From: an uncultured delta proteobacterium
GTDB lineage: Bacteria; Desulfobacterota; Desulfobacteria; Desulfobacterales; JAFDCJ01
DNA length: 64,000 bases
Reading direction: 5' to 3'
NCBI GenBank assembly: GCA_963769935.1
Contig: CAVYNY010000010.1
Span: forward strand, 320,001 to 384,000
A program made the position numbers and the translations under genes. Each line of letters opens with the position of its first letter. The first letter of the stretch is position 1. Below are positions 55,745-64,000 of this stretch, one piece after another. The notes beneath the pieces were generated by a model that searched no databases, was not told the origin of the DNA, and was given only the letters and a program-made list of their open reading frames with translations.

Positions 55745-55813
55745 AAAACCCGGAAAACTCTACTTTTTACGATTTCATCAAATTTGGGATTTGAAAATTT
55801 TTGGGAGGGCAGT

Positions 55814-57335
55814 ATGAGGAAAATATCCCTTGGGGAATGTTTTACGGATACCTTTTTAGCCCGCGGTGATAAGCCGGCGATTTCTTTCCTGCGGGGCGGT
55901 AAACTCGAAACCCGGATTTCCTATAGCGAATTAGATCGGCACGCCAACCGCATGGCCTGTGTTTTCCAAAACCTGAGGGTGAATAAAGGCGACCGGGTCA
56001 TACTTTTTATCCCGAAATCCCTAATCTTTGTGGTGGCGCATCTGGCGTTGCAAAAAATTGGTGCCATTGCCGTGCCTTTAAATCCGGGTTTTAAGAAATC
56101 CGAAATGGCCTATTTGCTTCAGGATGCGGATGCAAAAGTAATCATTGCGGAATCTGCTGCTGAAACCCTCATCCAAGAAATAGATCCCGATCTGAACCGG
56201 CTGGTCATTGACACCCGCCAACCTTATCAGAATATCGACCTGGTGCAAAAGGCTTCCGAACATTTCACGCCGGTCGAAATACACGCTGATGATCCGGGTC
56301 TTATCATTTACACTTCGGGCACCACCGGTAAACCCAAAGGGGCGGTTCTGACCCAGATGAACCTGATCCATGACGCCCGCAATATCATTAAAATTTGGGA
56401 AATAAGCCAGGCGGATACCCTCTGCCATGCGCTGCCGCTTTTTCATGTCCACGGACTTTGTTTTGCCCTGCACACGTCGCTGTTGGCCGGCGGTCATGTG
56501 GTCATGCTCGATCAGTTTTCTCCCCCCGGTTATTGATACCTTGCGCCGACAGGATGGACCCCGGGTGTGTACGATCTTTATGGCGGTGCCTGCCATGTAC
56601 GGAAAATTGATGCAATATCTCGGTGATGAAAGACCTCATTTTGGACACATGCGCTTGTGGACTTCGGGGTCCGCTCCGCTTCTGCCGGCCGACTTTGAGC
56701 GCATCCACCAAATATTCGGCAAAGAACCGGTGGAAAGGGAGGGAATGTCTGAAACCGGAATGAATTTTTCAAATCCGCTGCACGGCAAAAGAAAGCCGGG
56801 ATCCATCGGCCTGCCTTTGCCGGAACTGGAAGTCAGGATCGTTGACCCGGTTGCCGGAGAGGATGTAATGCCCGGTCAAACCGGTGAATTCCGGTTGAAA
56901 GGGCCCGCGATAACTGCGGGGTACTGGCGCACACCGGAAGAAACCGAACATGCTTTCGAAGGCGACTGGTTTAAAAGCGGTGATCTGGGACACATTGATG
57001 ATGACGGCTATTACTATCTCACCGATCGGATTAAACATATTATCATCTCCGGCGGCGAAAATATTTCTCCCAAAGAAGTGGAGATCGTCATCAACCGGAT
57101 CGAGGGCGTGGCGGAATCATCGGTGGTGGGAATTGCCGATGAAAAGTGGGGCGAAAAGGTCGTGGCGGCCGTTGTAAAAATGCCCGGTGCCGATGTCGGC
57201 GAAAATGAAATTCAAGCGTATTGCAAACAACACCTGCACGACTGGAAGTGCCCCAAAGTAATTTTCTTTGTAAAAGAGCTGCCCCGCAACACCATGGGCA
57301 AAGTGTTAAAAGAAGAAGTGAAAAAACTGTTCTAA
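55814..57335 (+). pseudogene. Acyl-CoA synthetase (malonyl-CoA ligase MatB-like), frameshifted at a C6 run (real or sequencing error)
   Basis: YTSGTTGKPKG and LPLFHVHG in one frame; SGSAPL, EREGMSET, GDLG, ISGGEN and PRNTMGKV in another. The shift is at 56522-56527. Confidence 0.82.
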
Positions 57336-57510: not shown

Positions 57511-58674
57511 TTAAGTAGAGCGCAGGCGCGGCGGCATGATAAAGACCCGCCGCAATCCCTCTTTGAGCGAAATGGCCTCCTCCGGGCAAAACCGGGAGCA
57601 AACACCGCATCCCAGACAAGCGTTCTCATCCCGCTGGGCCAGCCCCTCATCGTTGAGGGCAATGGCGTCGGTGGGACACCACGCCACGCAGGTGCCGCAG
57701 CCGCTGCACGCCTGCTGGTCGATCACCGATAGATAGTAAGTGGAATTGATCAGCGGCAGGGTGCCGCTGCGCCAGAGCCCCAGGGTATCACAACAATCCT
57801 TGCAGCAGTTGCAGATGCTCGTTTCCGGGCTGGTTTCCCGGGAGCCCGGGTGAAAGGCCTTGTGAATCAACCCGGCCTGGGCGGCCTCCCGCATGATTTT
57901 AAGGGCTTCTTCCTTGGTGACCTTTTGGGCAAACCCCTGGGCGGTCGTATGCCGGGCGGATTTGCCGAAGGTAAAACAGTTTAATACCGGCGCATCGGTG
58001 CTGCAGGGCTCGCCGAGCAGACTTCGGCGCTGGCGGCAAAAACAATGTCCGACGGCAATGTCGTCAAACTTGTTGATAATCTCCTCGACCGTCTGACTGG
58101 GAAGAATGAATTCATCGCCGATATCCAGGGTCTTATCCACCGGTATGATCTTGATCGACTTTCCGTCTTCGGCTATCCTGGCGGGCACGGTCCGGTCGAC
58201 CGCGGGGGCACTGCCGAACAAGGGTGCCAGCGCATCATAATTTTGCTGAGTCTGATCGCGGAGTTCTCCCAGCAGCTTTTCGAATAGGCTGGCAAGCTTT
58301 TTTTCCGCCTCGCTTCCGGTGGCTTTCACCATAAATTTGTATTCCATCAATCCCACCAACATGAGCGGCAGAAGCCTGTAAACCATGACGCCGGCCGAAT
58401 TGGGTTGATTGAACACAAGCCCTTTCTGTGCCAGACTTGCTGCCAGATGGTCGACTTTCTCGGCCGAGAACCCGCTCGATTCCACGAGCTGGTCCAATGT
58501 TTGAGACGGCTGCCGGCGGAAGGCATATATCAGGTCGAGTTCTTCTTCATTTTCCCCGACAGCTGCGACGACAATGGCGACGGCCGTATCGTTTACCGGA
58601 AATTGAACCATGCCCTGTTTGCAGATCACACCGGCTGCTTTTTTGAATTTTTCCTCTAAGGCAATTTGCGTCAT
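57511..58674 (-). CDS. 4Fe-4S dicluster protein with an N-terminal HTH-like region
   Basis: CFCR, ICNCCKDCC, CSGCGTCVAWCP, CLGCGVCSRFCP; GGAGG RBS. Confidence 0.85.
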   Translation of the reverse strand: MTQIALEEKFKKAAGVICKQGMVQFPVNDTAVAIVVAAVGENEEELDLIYAFRRQPSQTLDQLVESSGFSAEKVDHLAASLAQKGLVFNQPNSAGVMVYRLLPLMLVGLMEYKFMVKATGSEAEKKLASLFEKLLGELRDQTQQNYDALAPLFGSAPAVDRTVPARIAEDGKSIKIIPVDKTLDIGDEFILPSQTVEEIINKFDDIAVGHCFCRQRRSLLGEPCSTDAPVLNCFTFGKSARHTTAQGFAQKVTKEEALKIMREAAQAGLIHKAFHPGSRETSPETSICNCCKDCCDTLGLWRSGTLPLINSTYYLSVIDQQACSGCGTCVAWCPTDAIALNDEGLAQRDENACLGCGVCSRFCPEEAISLKEGLRRVFIMPPRLRST

Positions 58675-58897
58675 AAGTATTTTTTCCTCCCCAAATTGAG
58701 CGATTTGAATATGTGTATCAACAATGATCATACAGGTCAAGTATGCATAGGCCTGATCAGGCTTCCGTCATTTAAGGAGATAAATGACTAATTTTGCAAA
58801 AATTGCCCGCTTAACAAAAATCATGACGTTTATTATATTGTAAACTGGATTTTGCACCCAAGCATATAAAGGACAATATTTCCAGACGTGATGGGGC

Positions 58898-60208
58898 TTA
58901 AATCGTAACCACTTCCGGCAGGGGTTTTATAAAATTTTGGCGAAGACTGTAGGTATAGGCGCCCTGGTTTGGAATCATCAGAATATCACCGGGTTCAATA
59001 CCCGCCCCCCAATACGCATAGCCCCAGACATCATGCGGGGTGCACAGGGAGCCCAGGACATGGCAGGGCTTTTCATTCATGGCCGGCCGCGTCAGGTTCA
59101 GAATTGGAAAATAGTCGGTCTCGAAGCGTTCCCAGCCGACGGCATTGGTCCCGGCATCGGTTATCACCAGATCCGGGGCCTTTTTATCGACCACTGAAAA
59201 CAGCAGTTGGACGGCATCGTTGCAGACCCAGCGGCCGGGTTCCAGGCATATCCGGCAGGGTGCGACGGCCAACAGATGCCGGTGAATGGCGGTGCTGAGC
59301 CGCTCGGCGAATTCTTCAATGCCGGTCGCCGGCAGGCGATGGTGCGCCGCAACCGGTTCCGTCTGCTGCCCCAAAGCCTCCAGCAGTTTGCCCTCCGGAG
59401 TTCCGGCCGGCTGCAGCCATTCGCCCTGAGACGGCCAGTACCCGCCTCCGATATCGATAAACTCCAGCTGGGAAAGAAACGACGCGGGCATTTCAGCCAG
59501 CACCTTGCCAAGGATGCGGATAAATTCGATCTGGGGAGCGGGTGAAAGGTTCCAGCTGGTGTGAAACTGCAGTCCCAGCAGCCGGACATGCCGGCAGCGG
59601 CTCACCTCATCCCAGAAGGATGACAGCGCTTGGGGGACAATGCCGAATTTGCGCCAGAGGCCGTTCGGATTGACGGTTAAGCGCACCCCGCAGCGGACGC
59701 ACGTGTCGGATTTAGCCGCAAGCGCTTCCAACCGGTGCAGCTCGCCCGGACTGTCCATAAGGACAATGACCCGGTCGGTGTGCGCCAATGCCAGCTGCAG
59801 CTCGGCAGCCGTTTTCCCAGGGCCGCTGAAGACAATGTCCCGGGCACCGATGCCCAACGCCATCTCCAGCTCCAGTCCGCTGGAAACATCCAGCCCAAAG
59901 CCCGCCGCCAGCATTATGCGGGCCACTTCGGGGTGGTTGTTGCTTTTCACGGCATAATAGAATGCAGCCGCAGGCAACAAATTTTCAAAGGCTTTTTTCA
60001 GCTGAGCGGCCCTGCTTTTTAAAATTGCCGATTCCTGAAGATATAAGGGCGCCGGATGATCTTCAATAATATGTAGATAATGATCCCGGCGGTTGAAATG
60101 ATGCTGCACAAACGACCGCAGCTCATCCCAGGGGAACAGGGGGGTCGGATGTTCCGGCATCAGATTCAGCCTGCGAAGCAAATCATATTGATTTTCCGGC
60201 TTTGACAT
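58898..60208 (-). CDS. Fold-type III PLP-dependent decarboxylase (LysA/ODC superfamily, BtrK/SbnH-like)
   Basis: YAVKSN (PLP Lys), SGPGK, KFG, DIGGG, EPGR, GSLCTPHD, GAY. Confidence 0.88.
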   Translation of the reverse strand: MSKPENQYDLLRRLNLMPEHPTPLFPWDELRSFVQHHFNRRDHYLHIIEDHPAPLYLQESAILKSRAAQLKKAFENLLPAAAFYYAVKSNNHPEVARIMLAAGFGLDVSSGLELEMALGIGARDIVFSGPGKTAAELQLALAHTDRVIVLMDSPGELHRLEALAAKSDTCVRCGVRLTVNPNGLWRKFGIVPQALSSFWDEVSRCRHVRLLGLQFHTSWNLSPAPQIEFIRILGKVLAEMPASFLSQLEFIDIGGGYWPSQGEWLQPAGTPEGKLLEALGQQTEPVAAHHRLPATGIEEFAERLSTAIHRHLLAVAPCRICLEPGRWVCNDAVQLLFSVVDKKAPDLVITDAGTNAVGWERFETDYFPILNLTRPAMNEKPCHVLGSLCTPHDVWGYAYWGAGIEPGDILMIPNQGAYTYSLRQNFIKPLPEVVTI

Positions 60209-60212
60209 TAGT

Positions 60213-61478
60213 TCAATCGATCTCCAGGGCGAGCTTTTCGAGAAGCTCCCGGCATTGCGTAGCCGCCTCGCCGACCGCATCCGGCTCAAAGATAATGTGT
60301 CCCAACAGCCACGAATCGTAATCGTCGGGCGGTAGTTTAATTGAATGCCCCGCTTTGCGGATGAGATGGATTTCATGCACCCGGCCATCCTGCCGCAGTC
60401 GATGGGCATCGATTTTTTTTAAAATTCCGCCTTGGCGGGCATGCAGGCGCAAGCCTATAAAAGCATGCAAATCAGATGAATGATTCAAGCGCAGGGGTCG
60501 CCTCTGGGAAAAATCCAGAAAAAGCTTTAATATATCCAGGCCCCGCGACCGGCGTAATAGAAATGGAAGGCAGTCGCCGCCCGGCCGGGGTGCCAGCTCC
60601 AGCAAAACGATCCGGCCCTCGCAGACCATAAAGTCCAGCATGCACAAGGCCCGTTCGAGTCCCAGAGCAGCCGCACTCCGGGAAAGGGTTTGAAGCAAAT
60701 TACGTTCATCAATTTCAGCGGGCAGCGCCGCCGGTAGATAATAGCCCAACGCAGTACCGAACGGTTTCCAGGGAGCGAGGATTTTGCGGGTTAGCCGGAT
60801 AACCTCCACCCGACCGTCTTCTATAATAAAATCACAGCTGTATTCCGAGCCCCCAACACACTCCTCAGCCAGGATGGCAGCATGATCCGCTCGGCAGGAC
60901 TGGTAGAGGCGCTGGACCCGTCGCTGCTCCAAACCGCTTTGAATCTTAAAAAAGCTTTGCTCACATTCGTCAGCACTGTTGCAGCGGAAGATCAATTCAC
61001 TGCCGCTGCCGCTCAACGGTTTTAAAACACAGGCAACGCCCAGTTCCCGGAAATAATTCGCGGCCTCGTTCGCCGATCTGACAAGCCGATTCCTGGGGGT
61101 ATAAAGCCCCTGCTTCTGCCAAAGGGTTTTTGAAAGAAATTTATCCCGGCAGTTTTGGACGGCCCGGACGGATGGGTAGGGCAGCCCGTACTGCTGGGCC
61201 AGAACAGAGGCCAGCTCCATGGATTCACAATCGAAGCTGACGATGCCGCCCAATCGCATATTTTCTTTCAGCAGGTGCCGCTCCAGCAGCTGCCGCGCCC
61301 GGTCGTAGTCGGATAAATCGCACAGGATTTCTTCCGCCGGCATAGGACATGGTTCTTGAGCCTGCCGGCGGACCGCGGGTTCGGTGAGAAACAGGGCCCG
61401 TTCGGGACAACTGCGACGGATCCAGTCGATATAGTCCGGGGTTGTGCCGACAACCAGTACTTTGGTGTTAACCTGCAA
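60213..61478 (-). CDS. ATP-grasp domain protein (putative amide/peptide ligase)
   Basis: CRDKF, VLKPLSGSGS, AEECVGGSEYS, LLELAPRPGGD. Probable TTG start overlaps the upstream stop. Confidence 0.85.
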   Translation of the reverse strand: MQVNTKVLVVGTTPDYIDWIRRSCPERALFLTEPAVRRQAQEPCPMPAEEILCDLSDYDRARQLLERHLLKENMRLGGIVSFDCESMELASVLAQQYGLPYPSVRAVQNCRDKFLSKTLWQKQGLYTPRNRLVRSANEAANYFRELGVACVLKPLSGSGSELIFRCNSADECEQSFFKIQSGLEQRRVQRLYQSCRADHAAILAEECVGGSEYSCDFIIEDGRVEVIRLTRKILAPWKPFGTALGYYLPAALPAEIDERNLLQTLSRSAAALGLERALCMLDFMVCEGRIVLLELAPRPGGDCLPFLLRRSRGLDILKLFLDFSQRRPLRLNHSSDLHAFIGLRLHARQGGILKKIDAHRLRQDGRVHEIHLIRKAGHSIKLPPDDYDSWLLGHIIFEPDAVGEAATQCRELLEKLALEID

Positions 61479-62436
61479 CAGCCGCTCTCCGGTCGATGAC
61501 AACATCCTGCCAGATCTCCTGGGCCGGCAGGTTTCCAATCTTGTATAAAGGCCGCGGCGTTAGATGAAATCTCGTTTTCCAGTTAAAATCTCCGCAAAGG
61601 AAATCGACCTCTTCCAATCTTTGCTGGCAGGCCCATTCGAGATGATGAAAATTGATCAATTTGGCAATGCCGGGAAAATCGGGGTCCGTGCCGCCGGCCA
61701 AAACCGTATAGGTTGAGTTCCAGACGGCCCCGATATCCACGGCGGCCATCCGGCTGCCGATAAGCACCGTGGTGATCCGCAGCAGGTTGTTGGCCTGCAG
61801 CCATGCGGCAAGTTTTTCAAATGCTTTAAAAAAACGCCGATCATTGAAGTAGGAATACTCTTTGAAGCTATCCAGGTTCATGCGAAACATGTGTTCAATG
61901 TCCGCATAGCAATTATACCGATAGGAAAGGCCGCCGGCGGCAAGCCGATTAATTTCATGTTTAATTTTTTTAAGTGATTTGCCCGAAAAGGTCTTTAGGT
62001 ATTGCTGGAAGGAATAATCATATTGTTGCGGAAAAAAAAGATATCCAACTTCATCTAAATCCACCATGGAATCACGCTGAAAAAAAGGAGATCCGGTTAG
62101 ATATCTGATCTTGGCGGTGTCCGGAATGTGGTTTAATAATGCAGATGCCGTCGCAGCATCCTCCGCCAGGATTTTATTTTGTTCCAGCCATGTTTTGCCC
62201 TGCCAGACTTCACCGGGAAAATGACCGAAGCACTGCTCCTCATCAATCCAGCTCAGGGCCAGCATTCCGCAAAATCTGCCATTTTGCCGGGCTACCAGAA
62301 AATAGGGGCTATAATTAAATTGTGATTGAAAACAGGCTCTGACCGGCCAAAGATCAAAGAGGCGCTCTTTGGGCCAATGCCGCTGCCACAGGCTTTTGGC
62401 CTCTTCGAGGTCATTGCAGACACTAATTTTGAACAT
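61468..62436 (-). CDS. GNAT-fold protein (Acetyltransf_6 / CelD-BcsL / FemAB-like)
   Basis: YLKTFSGKSLKKIK..INRL, IAKLINFHHLEWAC, VDFLCGDFNWKTRF. Confidence 0.78.
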   Translation of the reverse strand: MFKISVCNDLEEAKSLWQRHWPKERLFDLWPVRACFQSQFNYSPYFLVARQNGRFCGMLALSWIDEEQCFGHFPGEVWQGKTWLEQNKILAEDAATASALLNHIPDTAKIRYLTGSPFFQRDSMVDLDEVGYLFFPQQYDYSFQQYLKTFSGKSLKKIKHEINRLAAGGLSYRYNCYADIEHMFRMNLDSFKEYSYFNDRRFFKAFEKLAAWLQANNLLRITTVLIGSRMAAVDIGAVWNSTYTVLAGGTDPDFPGIAKLINFHHLEWACQQRLEEVDFLCGDFNWKTRFHLTPRPLYKIGNLPAQEIWQDVVIDRRAAVAG

Positions 62437-62446
62437 AATATGCCTC

Positions 62447-62872
62447 CTACTGCCGCAATGTGACGTTCAAAACACTATGGCTTCCACCGAAATAAAGTTG
62501 GGAAAAACTTTTTGCGATTTCCGGATCGTACGGTTTGCAGCTGAAAACATCCAGGTAAACCGTGTTGGTCTGGTTTGCAAAATGGGCGGATATCAGGGAA
62601 GTTTCGATGAGCTGAACCATGGAGTAGCCGGCCACGCGTTCGTCTTCACCGAAATGCACCACCTGGGTATCGCCGAAACGCTTCATTTCAATTAAATCAC
62701 AAAGCTCAATAACGAACCGCCGAATGGTTTCAGCGCAACGGATTTTATCCGGGTCACAGTCATAGATATCGATGGCGGAGGCTATTCCCCAGACATTTTT
62801 GGCGATGGCTGCCTCCAATATTCCATGGCCAACTGCGCAGGGCGGATTTTCAACCTGTTGTGAAATTTGCAT
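62447..62872 (-). CDS. speD: S-adenosylmethionine decarboxylase-like pyruvoyl proenzyme
   Basis: DIYDCD, HFG, GYSMVQLIETSLISAHF, YLDVFSCK; AGGAG RBS. Confidence 0.82.
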   Translation of the reverse strand: MQISQQVENPPCAVGHGILEAAIAKNVWGIASAIDIYDCDPDKIRCAETIRRFVIELCDLIEMKRFGDTQVVHFGEDERVAGYSMVQLIETSLISAHFANQTNTVYLDVFSCKPYDPEIAKSFSQLYFGGSHSVLNVTLRQ

Positions 62873-62991
62873 TATTTATCATTCCTCCTATAATCGGTGT
62901 TGCTGCTTTTTCAGTCATCTGCTAGATTGTTTGAGAATAAGATGTATGGAACCGGGTGCTTTAATTTTTCCGGATAGACTTTGCACCCTGC

Positions 62992-63007
62992 AGCATATTT
63001 CATGCCA
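62992..63007 (-). promoter_or_regulatory. Sigma54 (-24/-12) promoter of the speD-like operon
   Basis: Minus strand reads TGGCATGAAATATGCT, with GG and GC at consensus spacing, about 120 bp upstream of the ATG; a divergent activator gene is adjacent. Confidence 0.75.
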
Positions 63008-63272
63008 TATTGTTGGTAGTTTCATAACCTCCTTATATATTGGATTATTTCCGGTTTGGGGAAATATATCCAGTTTGGAAGTTGCCACTATTTTAGTATT
63101 ATAATACCGTTTTTAGTTGAAATATGAAAAATAATACCATAAAAAGCGTTTGTGAATTTTTGGGGCTGGAGAACTTGCCCGCAATCCTGGTTGACAAATG
63201 CTTTTTTAAATTAATTATAAATGATTACTGTAAGTTATCATGACAGCCGGTTAATTTGCGAATCGTCGGTAA

Positions 63273-63292
63273 AACGGTATTTAATTACCGTT
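63273..63292. promoter_or_regulatory. Candidate regulator-binding palindrome AACGGTA-N6-TACCGTT
   Basis: Perfect 7-bp arms; an extra half-site TACCGTT at 63105-63111. Confidence 0.4.
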
Positions 63293-63362
63293 CTTAGTGC
63301 CCGCTCAAGTTGGCTTCAACGGCTGCCAAAGGGAATATTTTTCCGCTCCCAAGGAGGTTGTG

Positions 63363-64000
63363 ATGCTCATTCGTTTAGGTTTGGCAATTAAGGACAAGAG
63401 CCTGCGGCGGGAACTGTTGCACAAGTTGTCCGAATCCGATGTCCGGGTTGAAACCTTCGGCCCTTTGCGGTCGGTATGGCAACAAGTGGTGCGCAGCGGA
63501 TGCGATGTAATCGTTATCAGCGAATCGCTTATCATTCGGCCGATCGATACCGGTATTGAAATACTCAATGAATTGCCTGAAAACCCCACGATCGTCATTA
63601 TTCATGACAGTGATTCGTCCGAAGAACATGCCCTGCTGGCCGCCGCCGGCGCCGACGTCGTTCTTTATGCCGGCATTTCAAAAAAAAGCATGATCGAGGC
63701 CGTTGAAACAGCGTTGGAATCCCGCCGCCAATTTATTCAAAGGAGACGGTACGATCGCCGGGGGCAGACGGATCCTAAAATCTCCGATTTCGTTTCAGAA
63801 AGCCAGGCCATGCAGGTTTTCATGGAAGATGTCCATCAGGTGATTCGCAGCGACTCGCCCATACTGCTGGTGGGGGAAACCGGCGTTGGCAAGGAACATC
63901 TGGCCAAAGCCATTCATGCCGGGAGTCCGCGCTCAACCGGACCCTTTGTCTCGATCAATACGGCGGCCATGCCCGAACAACTGCTCGAAAGCGAGTTATT
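63363..64000 (+). CDS. Sigma54-dependent enhancer-binding protein with an atypical receiver domain (3' end outside window)
   Basis: Not in the ORF track. Manual translation MLIRLGLAIKD..CDVIVISE..ESQAM..ILLVGETGVGKEHLAKAIH..PFVSINTAAMPEQLLESEL; AGGAGG RBS. Confidence 0.92.
   Translation, partial: MLIRLGLAIKDKSLRRELLHKLSESDVRVETFGPLRSVWQQVVRSGCDVIVISESLIIRPIDTGIEILNELPENPTIVIIHDSDSSEEHALLAAAGADVVLYAGISKKSMIEAVETALESRRQFIQRRRYDRRGQTDPKISDFVSESQAMQVFMEDVHQVIRSDSPILLVGETGVGKEHLAKAIHAGSPRSTGPFVSINTAAMPEQLLESEL

Follow-up and report, generated by a model that had tools for sequence, protein, structure and literature searches.

Organization of the operon

The window analysed here, a 64,000-nucleotide stretch of an uncultured delta proteobacterium of the Desulfobacterales (contig CAVYNY010000010.1, positions 320,001 to 384,000), carries near its end an operon predicted to encode, in gene order, a SpeDC-type pyruvoyl-dependent decarboxylase, a tandem-GNAT transferase of the FemX type, an ATP-grasp amide ligase, and a fold-III pyridoxal 5'-phosphate (PLP) decarboxylase (Table 1). 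The genes share the minus strand, with 10 bp between the first two, an 11-bp overlap between the second and third, and 4 bp between the last two; a -24/-12 promoter element lies ahead of them and a divergent sigma54 activator beyond it. This confirms the tightly packed, co-oriented arrangement reported in an earlier note made from the letters of the window. The start codon chosen for the ATP-grasp open reading frame (ORF) is a TTG, which gives a length equal to that of its homologs. All four proteins score over the cut-off of their Pfam family, none of the four reaches an NCBIfam cut-off, and their closest named relatives are Desulfobacterales records.

As that note also stated, speE, a carrier protein, and a nonribosomal peptide synthetase (NRPS) are all absent from the operon, which is not the spermidine pathway. 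No stand-alone speE-like ORF was found in the host genome (completeness 96.7%), where the matches to this family fall in frames of 525-1007 amino acids. We also rejected the idea that the operon replaces spermidine synthesis, since L048, L066, L078, L091, L097, and G008 have speE as well, within the locus or elsewhere in the genome.

Table 1. Features of the operon and its control region, in window coordinates.
Feature	Position	Strand	Description
SpeDC-type pyruvoyl-dependent decarboxylase gene	62447-62872	-	141 amino acids; AdoMet_dc PF02675, 76.5 bits
GNAT gene (tandem-GNAT, FemX-fold transferase, predicted)	61468-62436	-	322 amino acids; Acetyltransf_6 PF13480, 70.3 bits
ATP-grasp amide ligase gene (predicted)	60213-61478	-	421 amino acids; ATP-grasp_4 PF13535, 58.9 bits
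Fold-III PLP decarboxylase gene	58898-60208	-	436 amino acids; Orn_Arg_deC_N PF02784, 95.1 bits
Sigma54 -24/-12 promoter element	62992-63007	-	120 bp before the first operon start codon
Candidate activator site 1, imperfect palindrome GGTA-N6-TACC	63095-63108	-	101 bp upstream of the -24 element
Candidate activator site 2	63125-63138	-	131 bp upstream of the -24 element
Sigma54 activator gene, divergent (5' part)	63363-64000	+	PF00158; gene continues past the window end

Conservation, fusions, and splitting of the gene set

A scan of GTDB for the decarboxylase confirmed 384 of 400 pattern matches, from which the best 80 loci were kept; 69 of these extend 3.3 kb or more beyond the decarboxylase on its upstream side, and the remaining 11 are too short to judge. 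The ATP-grasp gene is found in 65 of the 69 loci, the GNAT gene in 63, and, by an adjacency rule, the SpeDC gene in 39, with gene order kept. A distant set of 80 further loci came from a scan of metagenomes in which a 38%-identical outlier served as lead (decarboxylases 45-57% identical to that outlier), and in the 34 with room upstream the three genes are found, again in this order, in 34, 34, and 33 loci, respectively. The synteny suggested as a check on the operon is wide, and the earlier view of a compact sigma54-controlled unit that likely makes an amine or amino-acid conjugate is supported.

The decarboxylase occurs in 74 of the 301 genomes sampled from the class, or roughly one in four (host included), and records of it are also found in Planctomycetota, Anaerolineales, and Ignavibacteriales, while none of 38 pattern matches among viral contigs was confirmed as a relative. 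The GNAT gene is present in 73/73 decarboxylase-positive genomes (one copy being a broken fragment), and the ATP-grasp gene was found in 0/80 decarboxylase-negative genomes, these being 80 of the 227 negatives in a scan that had no positive control; such genome-level counts come from related genomes and are thus not independent trials. The cultured strain Desulfosarcina alkanivorans PL12 has a three-enzyme version (L039). The exceptions are four of the 69 loci (L080, L083, L086, L093) in which the decarboxylase has no partners; in the first three, two of them Lentisphaerota-related by label, it lies directly behind a 1,270-residue DUF3857/transglutaminase-like gene. We observe no transporter, tailoring, or other enzyme gene that recurs beside the loci across lineages.

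Natural fusions join the ATP-grasp and decarboxylase proteins (P0121, P0125, P0126, P0160) and the GNAT and ATP-grasp proteins (P0122-P0124, P0127). In a single further sequence, P0186, a second ATP-grasp ligase is fused ahead of the ATP-grasp and decarboxylase, an arrangement in which a different amide-forming enzyme might take the place of the GNAT. In one genus, represented by five genomes (L198-L205; G119, G076, G226, G081, G121), the operon is split into a SpeDC/GNAT module and an ATP-grasp/decarboxylase module on different contigs. The activator, SpeDC, and GNAT genes lie at one place, SpeDC being lost in two genomes, and at the other place the ATP-grasp and decarboxylase genes adjoin a speD-speDC fusion and speE. 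The modules that we fetched have full-length ORFs, and SpeDC keeps the company of GNAT in all three genomes that retain it. The split probably represents one event.

A small charged ORF, mostly of 55-90 codons and rich in Lys, Arg, Asp, and Glu, is the first gene behind the promoter in 33 of the 80 GTDB loci (counted with a profile built from 30 ORFs that recovered 29 of these and 4 new ones). In its layout, as in L046:5973-6155, a Lys/Arg-rich motif comes after an acidic block, with a Trp at the end. It matches no NCBIfam family, and the ESM Atlas gives only unnamed clusters below 0.9. In the split genus it travels with the ATP-grasp/decarboxylase module and was detected in two of the three fetched. 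A role as obligatory precursor or carrier was rejected as general because the ORF was not found in the host genome and a search of 33 distant loci showed no homologue. In L116:10447-11085, the SpeDC frame has a long charged N-terminal extension, possibly a small ORF whose frame continues into SpeDC. In 15 of the 80 loci (e.g. L036:10294-11043), the gene after the decarboxylase encodes a C39-like peptidase, co-oriented in 14; the homologue in the host genome sits on another contig.

The SpeDC-type enzyme and the predicted supply of putrescine

According to PMC10407285, a clade of SpeD homologues decarboxylates ornithine only, and Gln, Thr, Phe, and Tyr residues are named as diagnostic of it. 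The product of the first gene has the Ser, His, and Cys required for self-cleavage and catalysis, which align with the residues marked in Fig. S5 of PMC10407285, and it has the diagnostic Gln/Thr/Phe/Tyr set, at positions inferred from the text and Fig. S5 of that paper; this motif is present in 41/41 stand-alone SpeDC ORFs. It is identical at 77 of 116 positions (66%, counted by eye in Fig. S5) to the assayed C-terminal ornithine decarboxylase (ODC) domain of the D. phosphitoxidans fusion, and at 76 of 117 positions (65%) to the C-terminal half of a related SpeD-SpeDC fusion, while the N-terminal S-adenosylmethionine decarboxylase (AdoMetDC) half of the latter gives no significant match. The His-x-Trp-Pro-Glu motif, in which the Pro after the catalytic His is conserved in AdoMetDC, is missing, and the AdoMetDC model TIGR03330 scores 28.5 bits against a cut-off of 75.65. 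A sequence search of the PDB gave no match. From these features we strongly infer that the protein is a SpeDC-type pyruvoyl L-ornithine decarboxylase, predicted to convert ornithine into putrescine, and that the amine of the operon is therefore putrescine. The SpeD-like label of the earlier note is thus corrected to the SpeDC type.

SpeDC is the sole putrescine source found in the host genome, because no second SpeD-family gene and no arginine decarboxylase of the aspartate aminotransferase (AAT) fold or pyruvoyl type was found there, and the only fold-III decarboxylases are the operon enzyme and a true LysA. Deoxyhypusine synthase/SpeY was not found either, nor was a standard triamine pathway that would consume putrescine, homospermidine synthase not having been searched for.

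The GNAT protein

The predicted structure of the GNAT protein has a mean confidence score (pLDDT) of 89. In a Foldseek search with this model, the best nine matches are FemX, Sbb17, and Sba18, with template modelling (TM) scores of 0.55-0.61 and E values of about 1e-11, whereas the sequence search of the PDB gave no match. Within these nine, Sbb17 and Sba18 reach 0.59-0.61 and FemX 0.55-0.59. They are followed by acetyl-CoA-using tandem GNATs and by aminoacyl-phosphatidylglycerol synthase domains.

The tRNA-dependent members of the FemX fold are described in PMC12945691 as having a double GNAT fold, a basic helix, and a conserved aromatic-Lys pair. Features that agree with these are observed in the operon family: helix 152-167 is basic, with a mean of 5.8 Lys and Arg versus 2.0 Asp and Glu, and the pair Trp286-Lys287 is invariant in 44/44 aligned sequences, Lys287 being likened to Lys305 of FemX by position only. 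Because of the FemX-type fold, the basic helix, and the invariant Lys, we consider the protein a tandem-GNAT, FemX-fold transferase whose donor is predicted to be an aminoacyl-tRNA. The Acetyltransf_6/FemAB family assigned earlier is retained in this way, and the fold is narrowed to the aminoacyl-tRNA transferases of the FemX/Sbb17 kind.

The ATP-grasp protein

The third protein exceeds the cut-off of ATP-grasp_4 and stays below that of LAL_C2 (19.1 bits, cut-off 29.4), and it has no ATPgrasp_N match. Its best solved relatives are 4dim, the L-amino-acid ligase 3vot, and then BacD. The family is distinct, with 322 representatives at E values up to 1e-30 among 1.84 billion. The protein may be an ATP-grasp amide ligase related to L-amino-acid ligases, and any substrates given below are predictions only. 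In P0186, P0253, and P0269, members of the wider family are joined in tandem to a second ATP-grasp, form part of a triple fusion that includes the decarboxylase, and, in a more distant case, lie at the end of an NRPS.

The PLP decarboxylase

Lys88, Glu323, Arg326, and Cys389 are invariant in the aligned decarboxylase family, as is the loop Cys-Thr-Pro-His (42/42 sequences), in which Thr390 comes directly after Cys389. According to PMC7857480, ODC, arginine decarboxylase (ADC), and diaminopimelate decarboxylase (DAPDC) have an acidic residue beside the catalytic Cys, DAPDC has in addition an Arg in its specificity helix, and FigC lacks both of these and uses His357. In the operon enzyme, the acid at Cys+1 is missing and Trp359 aligns with the specificity-helix Arg of DAPDC; therefore the enzyme is unlikely to act on free ornithine, lysine, arginine, or diaminopimelate. 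The Cys-Thr-Pro part of the loop is common to SbnH and BtrK, and the His at Cys+3 is common to FigC. The predicted specificity helix is acidic (Glu360, Glu363, Asp365), which suggests that the substrate carries a distal amine. Altogether, these residues point to a fold-III member of an unassayed subfamily that likely acts on a conjugated amino acid.

The label BtrK/SbnH-type given to this enzyme in the earlier note could not be established. The family profile scores 136 bits with FigC, 120 with DAPDC, and 119 with each of SbnH and BtrK, and the FslC model, whose cut-off is 500, gives 67. Fold matches do not separate substrate classes either: the list, headed by DAPDC and D-Orn/D-Lys decarboxylase, is flat. 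The earlier note had both decarboxylases as possible suppliers of amines; for the PLP enzyme, action on a conjugated amino acid is more likely than the supply of a second free amine.

The source databases name the proteins diaminopimelate decarboxylase or alanine racemase, as would be expected if the operon simply held an ordinary housekeeping LysA and SpeD, clustered without a common product. We regard this as very improbable: the lysA model scores 148 bits with the PLP enzyme, far under its cut-off of 298, a true lysA gene lies elsewhere in the host genome, the AdoMetDC model is likewise well under its cut-off for SpeDC, and the genes show strict co-occurrence and natural fusions.

Regulation and expression

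An orthologue of the cognate activator is present in 46 of the 69 GTDB loci with room. The -24/-12 site taken alone is a match with one mismatch, of which 2.7 are expected per window, but a like site recurs in the intergenic region of 39 of these 46 loci, where 0.33 are expected from shuffles and 1 was found on the opposite strand, so that it is more than a chance match; the promoter and divergent activator claimed in the earlier note are thereby upheld. This count comes from a scan of whole intergenic regions, a scan limited to 300 bp giving 14/46 because it misses the sites upstream of the small ORF.

The activator gene is complete in the genome and encodes 470 amino acids, including an AAA+ domain with the GAFTGA motif. 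A tandem pair of imperfect GGTA-N6-TACC palindromes, 29-33 bp apart, occurs in 21 of 34 upstream regions, compared with 0.4 in shuffles (maximum 3), and these palindromes are candidate binding sites of the activator. The 34 regions are those of the window and of 33 of the 39 promoter-bearing loci, six having been omitted by hand, mostly as close relatives. A site resembling the consensus of integration host factor is found in 28/34 regions versus a shuffle mean of 20 (maximum 27) and was rejected as too weak.

The N-terminal domain of the activator scores 17.5 bits with Response_reg (cut-off 30.2) and has, following the receiver consensus, a Ser at the phospho-Asp position in 44/47 sequences. 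This receiver-like domain has a strongly conserved surface, and no kinase gene is conserved nearby. The replacement of the phospho-Asp by Ser suggests that the activator likely senses a ligand or a protein rather than responding to a kinase. A TetR gene replaces the activator in 11 loci, and the sigma54 motif is found in only 4/33 distant loci; control of the operon is interchangeable.

Metatranscriptome contigs from four runs of one sediment study cover all four genes and are mostly 95-99% alike; in three of the runs, little or nothing is covered immediately upstream of about 62970. The runs were picked using the operon region itself and the contigs give neither start nor level, but they are compatible with transcription of the operon in close relatives.

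Neighbouring genes

On the same strand, 157 bp past the operon, positions 57511-58740 encode a 409-residue protein with C-terminal 4Fe-4S motifs; this ferredoxin-like gene was rejected as an operon member, given one distant match in 80 loci. Beyond it, an AMP-binding (acyl-CoA ligase-like) gene at 55784-57335 is split over two frames, with the break at a C run near 56520, where RNA contigs of relatives have small insertions; this is either a sequencing error or a true frameshift. Just past the window (L001:8799-10631), two genes converge on the activator, one for a methyltransferase and one for a protein like class I aminotransferases that resembles VioD/GntC with scores under the cut-offs; they were not seen as recurring neighbours of the operon.

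A proposed pathway and its alternatives

We propose tentatively, and would put slightly below an even chance, that the four-enzyme operon makes putrescine and builds on it a small amide-linked amino-acid conjugate. SpeDC would self-cleave and convert L-ornithine into putrescine, a step strongly indicated by its identity to the assayed enzyme. The FemX-fold GNAT would then move an amino acid from an aminoacyl-tRNA onto an amine of putrescine. The ATP-grasp enzyme might add a second amino acid whose alpha-amino-acid head is left free, the simplest donor perhaps being Glu or Asp joined through the side-chain carboxyl, and the PLP enzyme would strip the alpha-carboxyl to leave a 4-aminobutyryl or beta-alanyl end. 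The pathway would end in an amide analogue of polyamines that stays in the cytoplasm and is synthesised on demand. Gene order, fusions, and split modules together suggest the order putrescine formation, aminoacylation, ligation, and decarboxylation. Since the PLP decarboxylase needs a free alpha-amino-acid head, the ligase would have to join Glu or Asp by the side chain or else acylate the side-chain amine of ornithine.

Several observations weigh against this pathway. L-amino-acid ligases activate alpha-carboxyls, and a side-chain ligation step therefore fits poorly with the nearest solved ligases. The acetyl-CoA-using tandem GNATs match the GNAT model with E values of about 1e-9 to 1e-7. Both the FigC-best score of the decarboxylase profile and the FigC-like His at Cys+3 favour the FigC-like route described below. 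Moreover, the four-gene set of the earlier note is conserved as a set, but one of its genes proves dispensable in the Desulfobacteria sample: among the 73 decarboxylase-positive genomes, 50 have a stand-alone SpeDC, 10 have only a fusion-type copy (several degenerate), and 13 have no SpeD-family gene. Three of these 13 have an ODC-like gene, 61-100% identical to one adjoining speE, and speA is found in none of the 13. In the other 10 of the 73, the decarboxylase and GNAT persist and no putrescine-making enzyme was found (the AAT-fold and pyruvoyl-ADC families not being found in the two that were checked), so free putrescine may not be required. The SpeDC-less genomes would take up putrescine or use another decarboxylase. 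PotA, which would allow uptake, is over its cut-off in 7/10 genomes with no putrescine source versus 0/3 with their own ODC-like gene, a small and related sample, and PotA-like ATPases are numerous and unspecific in these genomes.

The match to acetyl-CoA-using enzymes, together with the Pfam name of the family as an acetyltransferase, would agree with a GNAT that depends on acyl-CoA, giving an N-acyl (e.g. acetylated) putrescine/amino-acid amide as a neutral compatible solute, and MscS channels or proBA are indeed found near some loci. Nevertheless, all nine best fold matches are tRNA-dependent enzymes, the conserved basic helix and invariant aromatic-Lys pair fit the tRNA-dependent class, and the osmotic neighbours are limited to few, mostly related loci, which makes this explanation improbable in our view.

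The points concerning the ligase, the decarboxylase, and putrescine would be better explained by a FigC-like route, in which a ligase or the GNAT places the acyl group on the side chain of ornithine (or lysine), at its amine, and the resulting N5-aminoacyl-ornithine is decarboxylated by the PLP enzyme to aminoacyl-putrescine. SpeDC would in that case provide a second diamine unit or a parallel entry, and the class of product would be the same as in the pathway proposed above, with only order and substrates differing. Such a route suits an alpha-carboxyl-activating ligase, explains the persistence of decarboxylase and GNAT in the 10 genomes, and has a precedent in rhizoferrin, reported in PMC7857480 to be formed without free putrescine; the corresponding values are the 136 bits of FigC, against 119-120 for the other solved enzymes, and the equivalence of the loop His to FigC H357. 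It is nonetheless rather unlikely, because SpeDC, which would be redundant, is retained in 33 of the 34 distant loci, the fold search does not single out FigC, and the specificity helix is acidic where FigC has Thr/Thr/Tyr.

A further alternative is that the operon decorates a macromolecule (peptidoglycan stem, lipid, protein, or precursor) with putrescine and amino acids. For example, a stem-bound diaminopimelate might be decarboxylated and combined with a FemX-type aminoacylation and an ATP-dependent amidation with putrescine. Diamine-amidated peptidoglycan occurs in Negativicutes. FemX at the top of the GNAT fold matches, DAPDC and D-Orn/D-Lys decarboxylase at the head of the decarboxylase fold list, and the small charged ORF, which could be a substrate in the loci where it comes first, are consistent with this. 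We consider it unlikely, given that genes for the cell wall, for lipids, or for export do not recur next to the operon, that the small-molecule enzymes Sbb17 and Sba18 have slightly higher TM scores than FemX, that the PLP enzyme is missing the DAPDC Arg, that the small ORF is confined as described above, and that a related ATP-grasp domain is found inside an NRPS (P0269).

Taking the proposed pathway, the FigC-like route, and the acyl-CoA variant together, the operon product is quite probably a small-molecule conjugate. A broader version of the proposed pathway, which we find doubtful, is that several phyla of sediment anaerobes produce polycations of a class not yet described, namely amide-linked analogues of polyamines built from putrescine, aminoacyl-tRNA, and a second amino acid, with no use of S-adenosylmethionine, NAD(P)H, or carrier protein, and switched on by a ligand-sensing pseudo-receiver activator. 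If true, this would be a new branch of polyamine metabolism, with the first tRNA-dependent step in one.

Comparison with known systems

The SpeDC enzymes of PMC10407285 share with the operon protein the same catalytic Ser/His/Cys and diagnostic residues, with 66% identity to the D. phosphitoxidans domain. In the clusters of that paper, speDC stands together with speD/speE, casdh/casdc, or hss, whereas the partners of SpeDC here are two amide-forming enzymes and a PLP decarboxylase; the terms ATP-grasp, GNAT, and diaminopimelate are not present in the main text of that paper.

PMC7857480 likewise reports, for rhizoferrin (FigA/FigC), SbnH, AcsE, MccE, and BtrK, that an amino acid is first conjugated by ligation and then decarboxylated by a fold-III PLP enzyme, as proposed here, and the FigC/SbnH/BtrK-type enzymes and the operon enzyme all have a Cys loop with no acidic residue. 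Identity between the operon enzyme and FigC, SbnH, AcsE, MccE, and BtrK is only about 20-24%. Unlike the FigA/FigC-type systems, the operon has no NRPS-independent siderophore (NIS) synthetase, citrate chemistry, exporter, or acyl carrier protein, and its ligases are an ATP-grasp and a FemX-fold protein; no NIS synthetase or acyl carrier partner was found among the recurring neighbours of the operon loci either.

The natural-product transferases Orf11/Sbb17/Sba18, DhpH-C, DhpK, PacB, and VlmA have, as described in PMC12945691, the double GNAT fold also seen in the operon GNAT, together with a basic helix and an aromatic-Lys pair to which the helix and Trp-Lys pair of the operon GNAT probably correspond. 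They are only 11-15% identical to it and lie in antibiotic clusters, whereas the operon GNAT belongs to anaerobic Gram-negative lineages and its acceptor is predicted to be a diamine.

Amide-linked products of a comparable kind are phevamine A and E-64, which reportedly include a polyamine or diamine unit. As here, ATP-grasp enzymes serve NRPS-independent amide formation in the pathways of phevamine A (PMC6187163) and E-64 (PMC12568646), but the enzyme sets are different, neither a pyruvoyl ODC nor a FemX-fold enzyme being seen in the abstract passages of these papers that were searched.

We searched the literature for the gene combination, SpeDC after 2023, Desulfosarcina polyamines, diamine-modified peptidoglycan, and names of aminoacyl-putrescines, with subscription papers and bioRxiv supplements outside the scope, and found no description, in agreement with the earlier note, which did not recognise the combination from any characterised pathway. 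The operon represents a real, old, self-contained, and apparently uncharacterised pathway assembled from known folds, a variant on the making of amide conjugates without an NRPS. Each of the four folds is known, and it is their combination that has no description in the literature searched. The operon would give SpeDC a role beyond the synthesis of spermidine and homospermidine, sets apart subfamilies of PLP decarboxylase, ATP-grasp ligase, and FemX-fold transferase that have no assayed member, and is compact and self-contained enough to be expressed whole, so that its product is directly testable.

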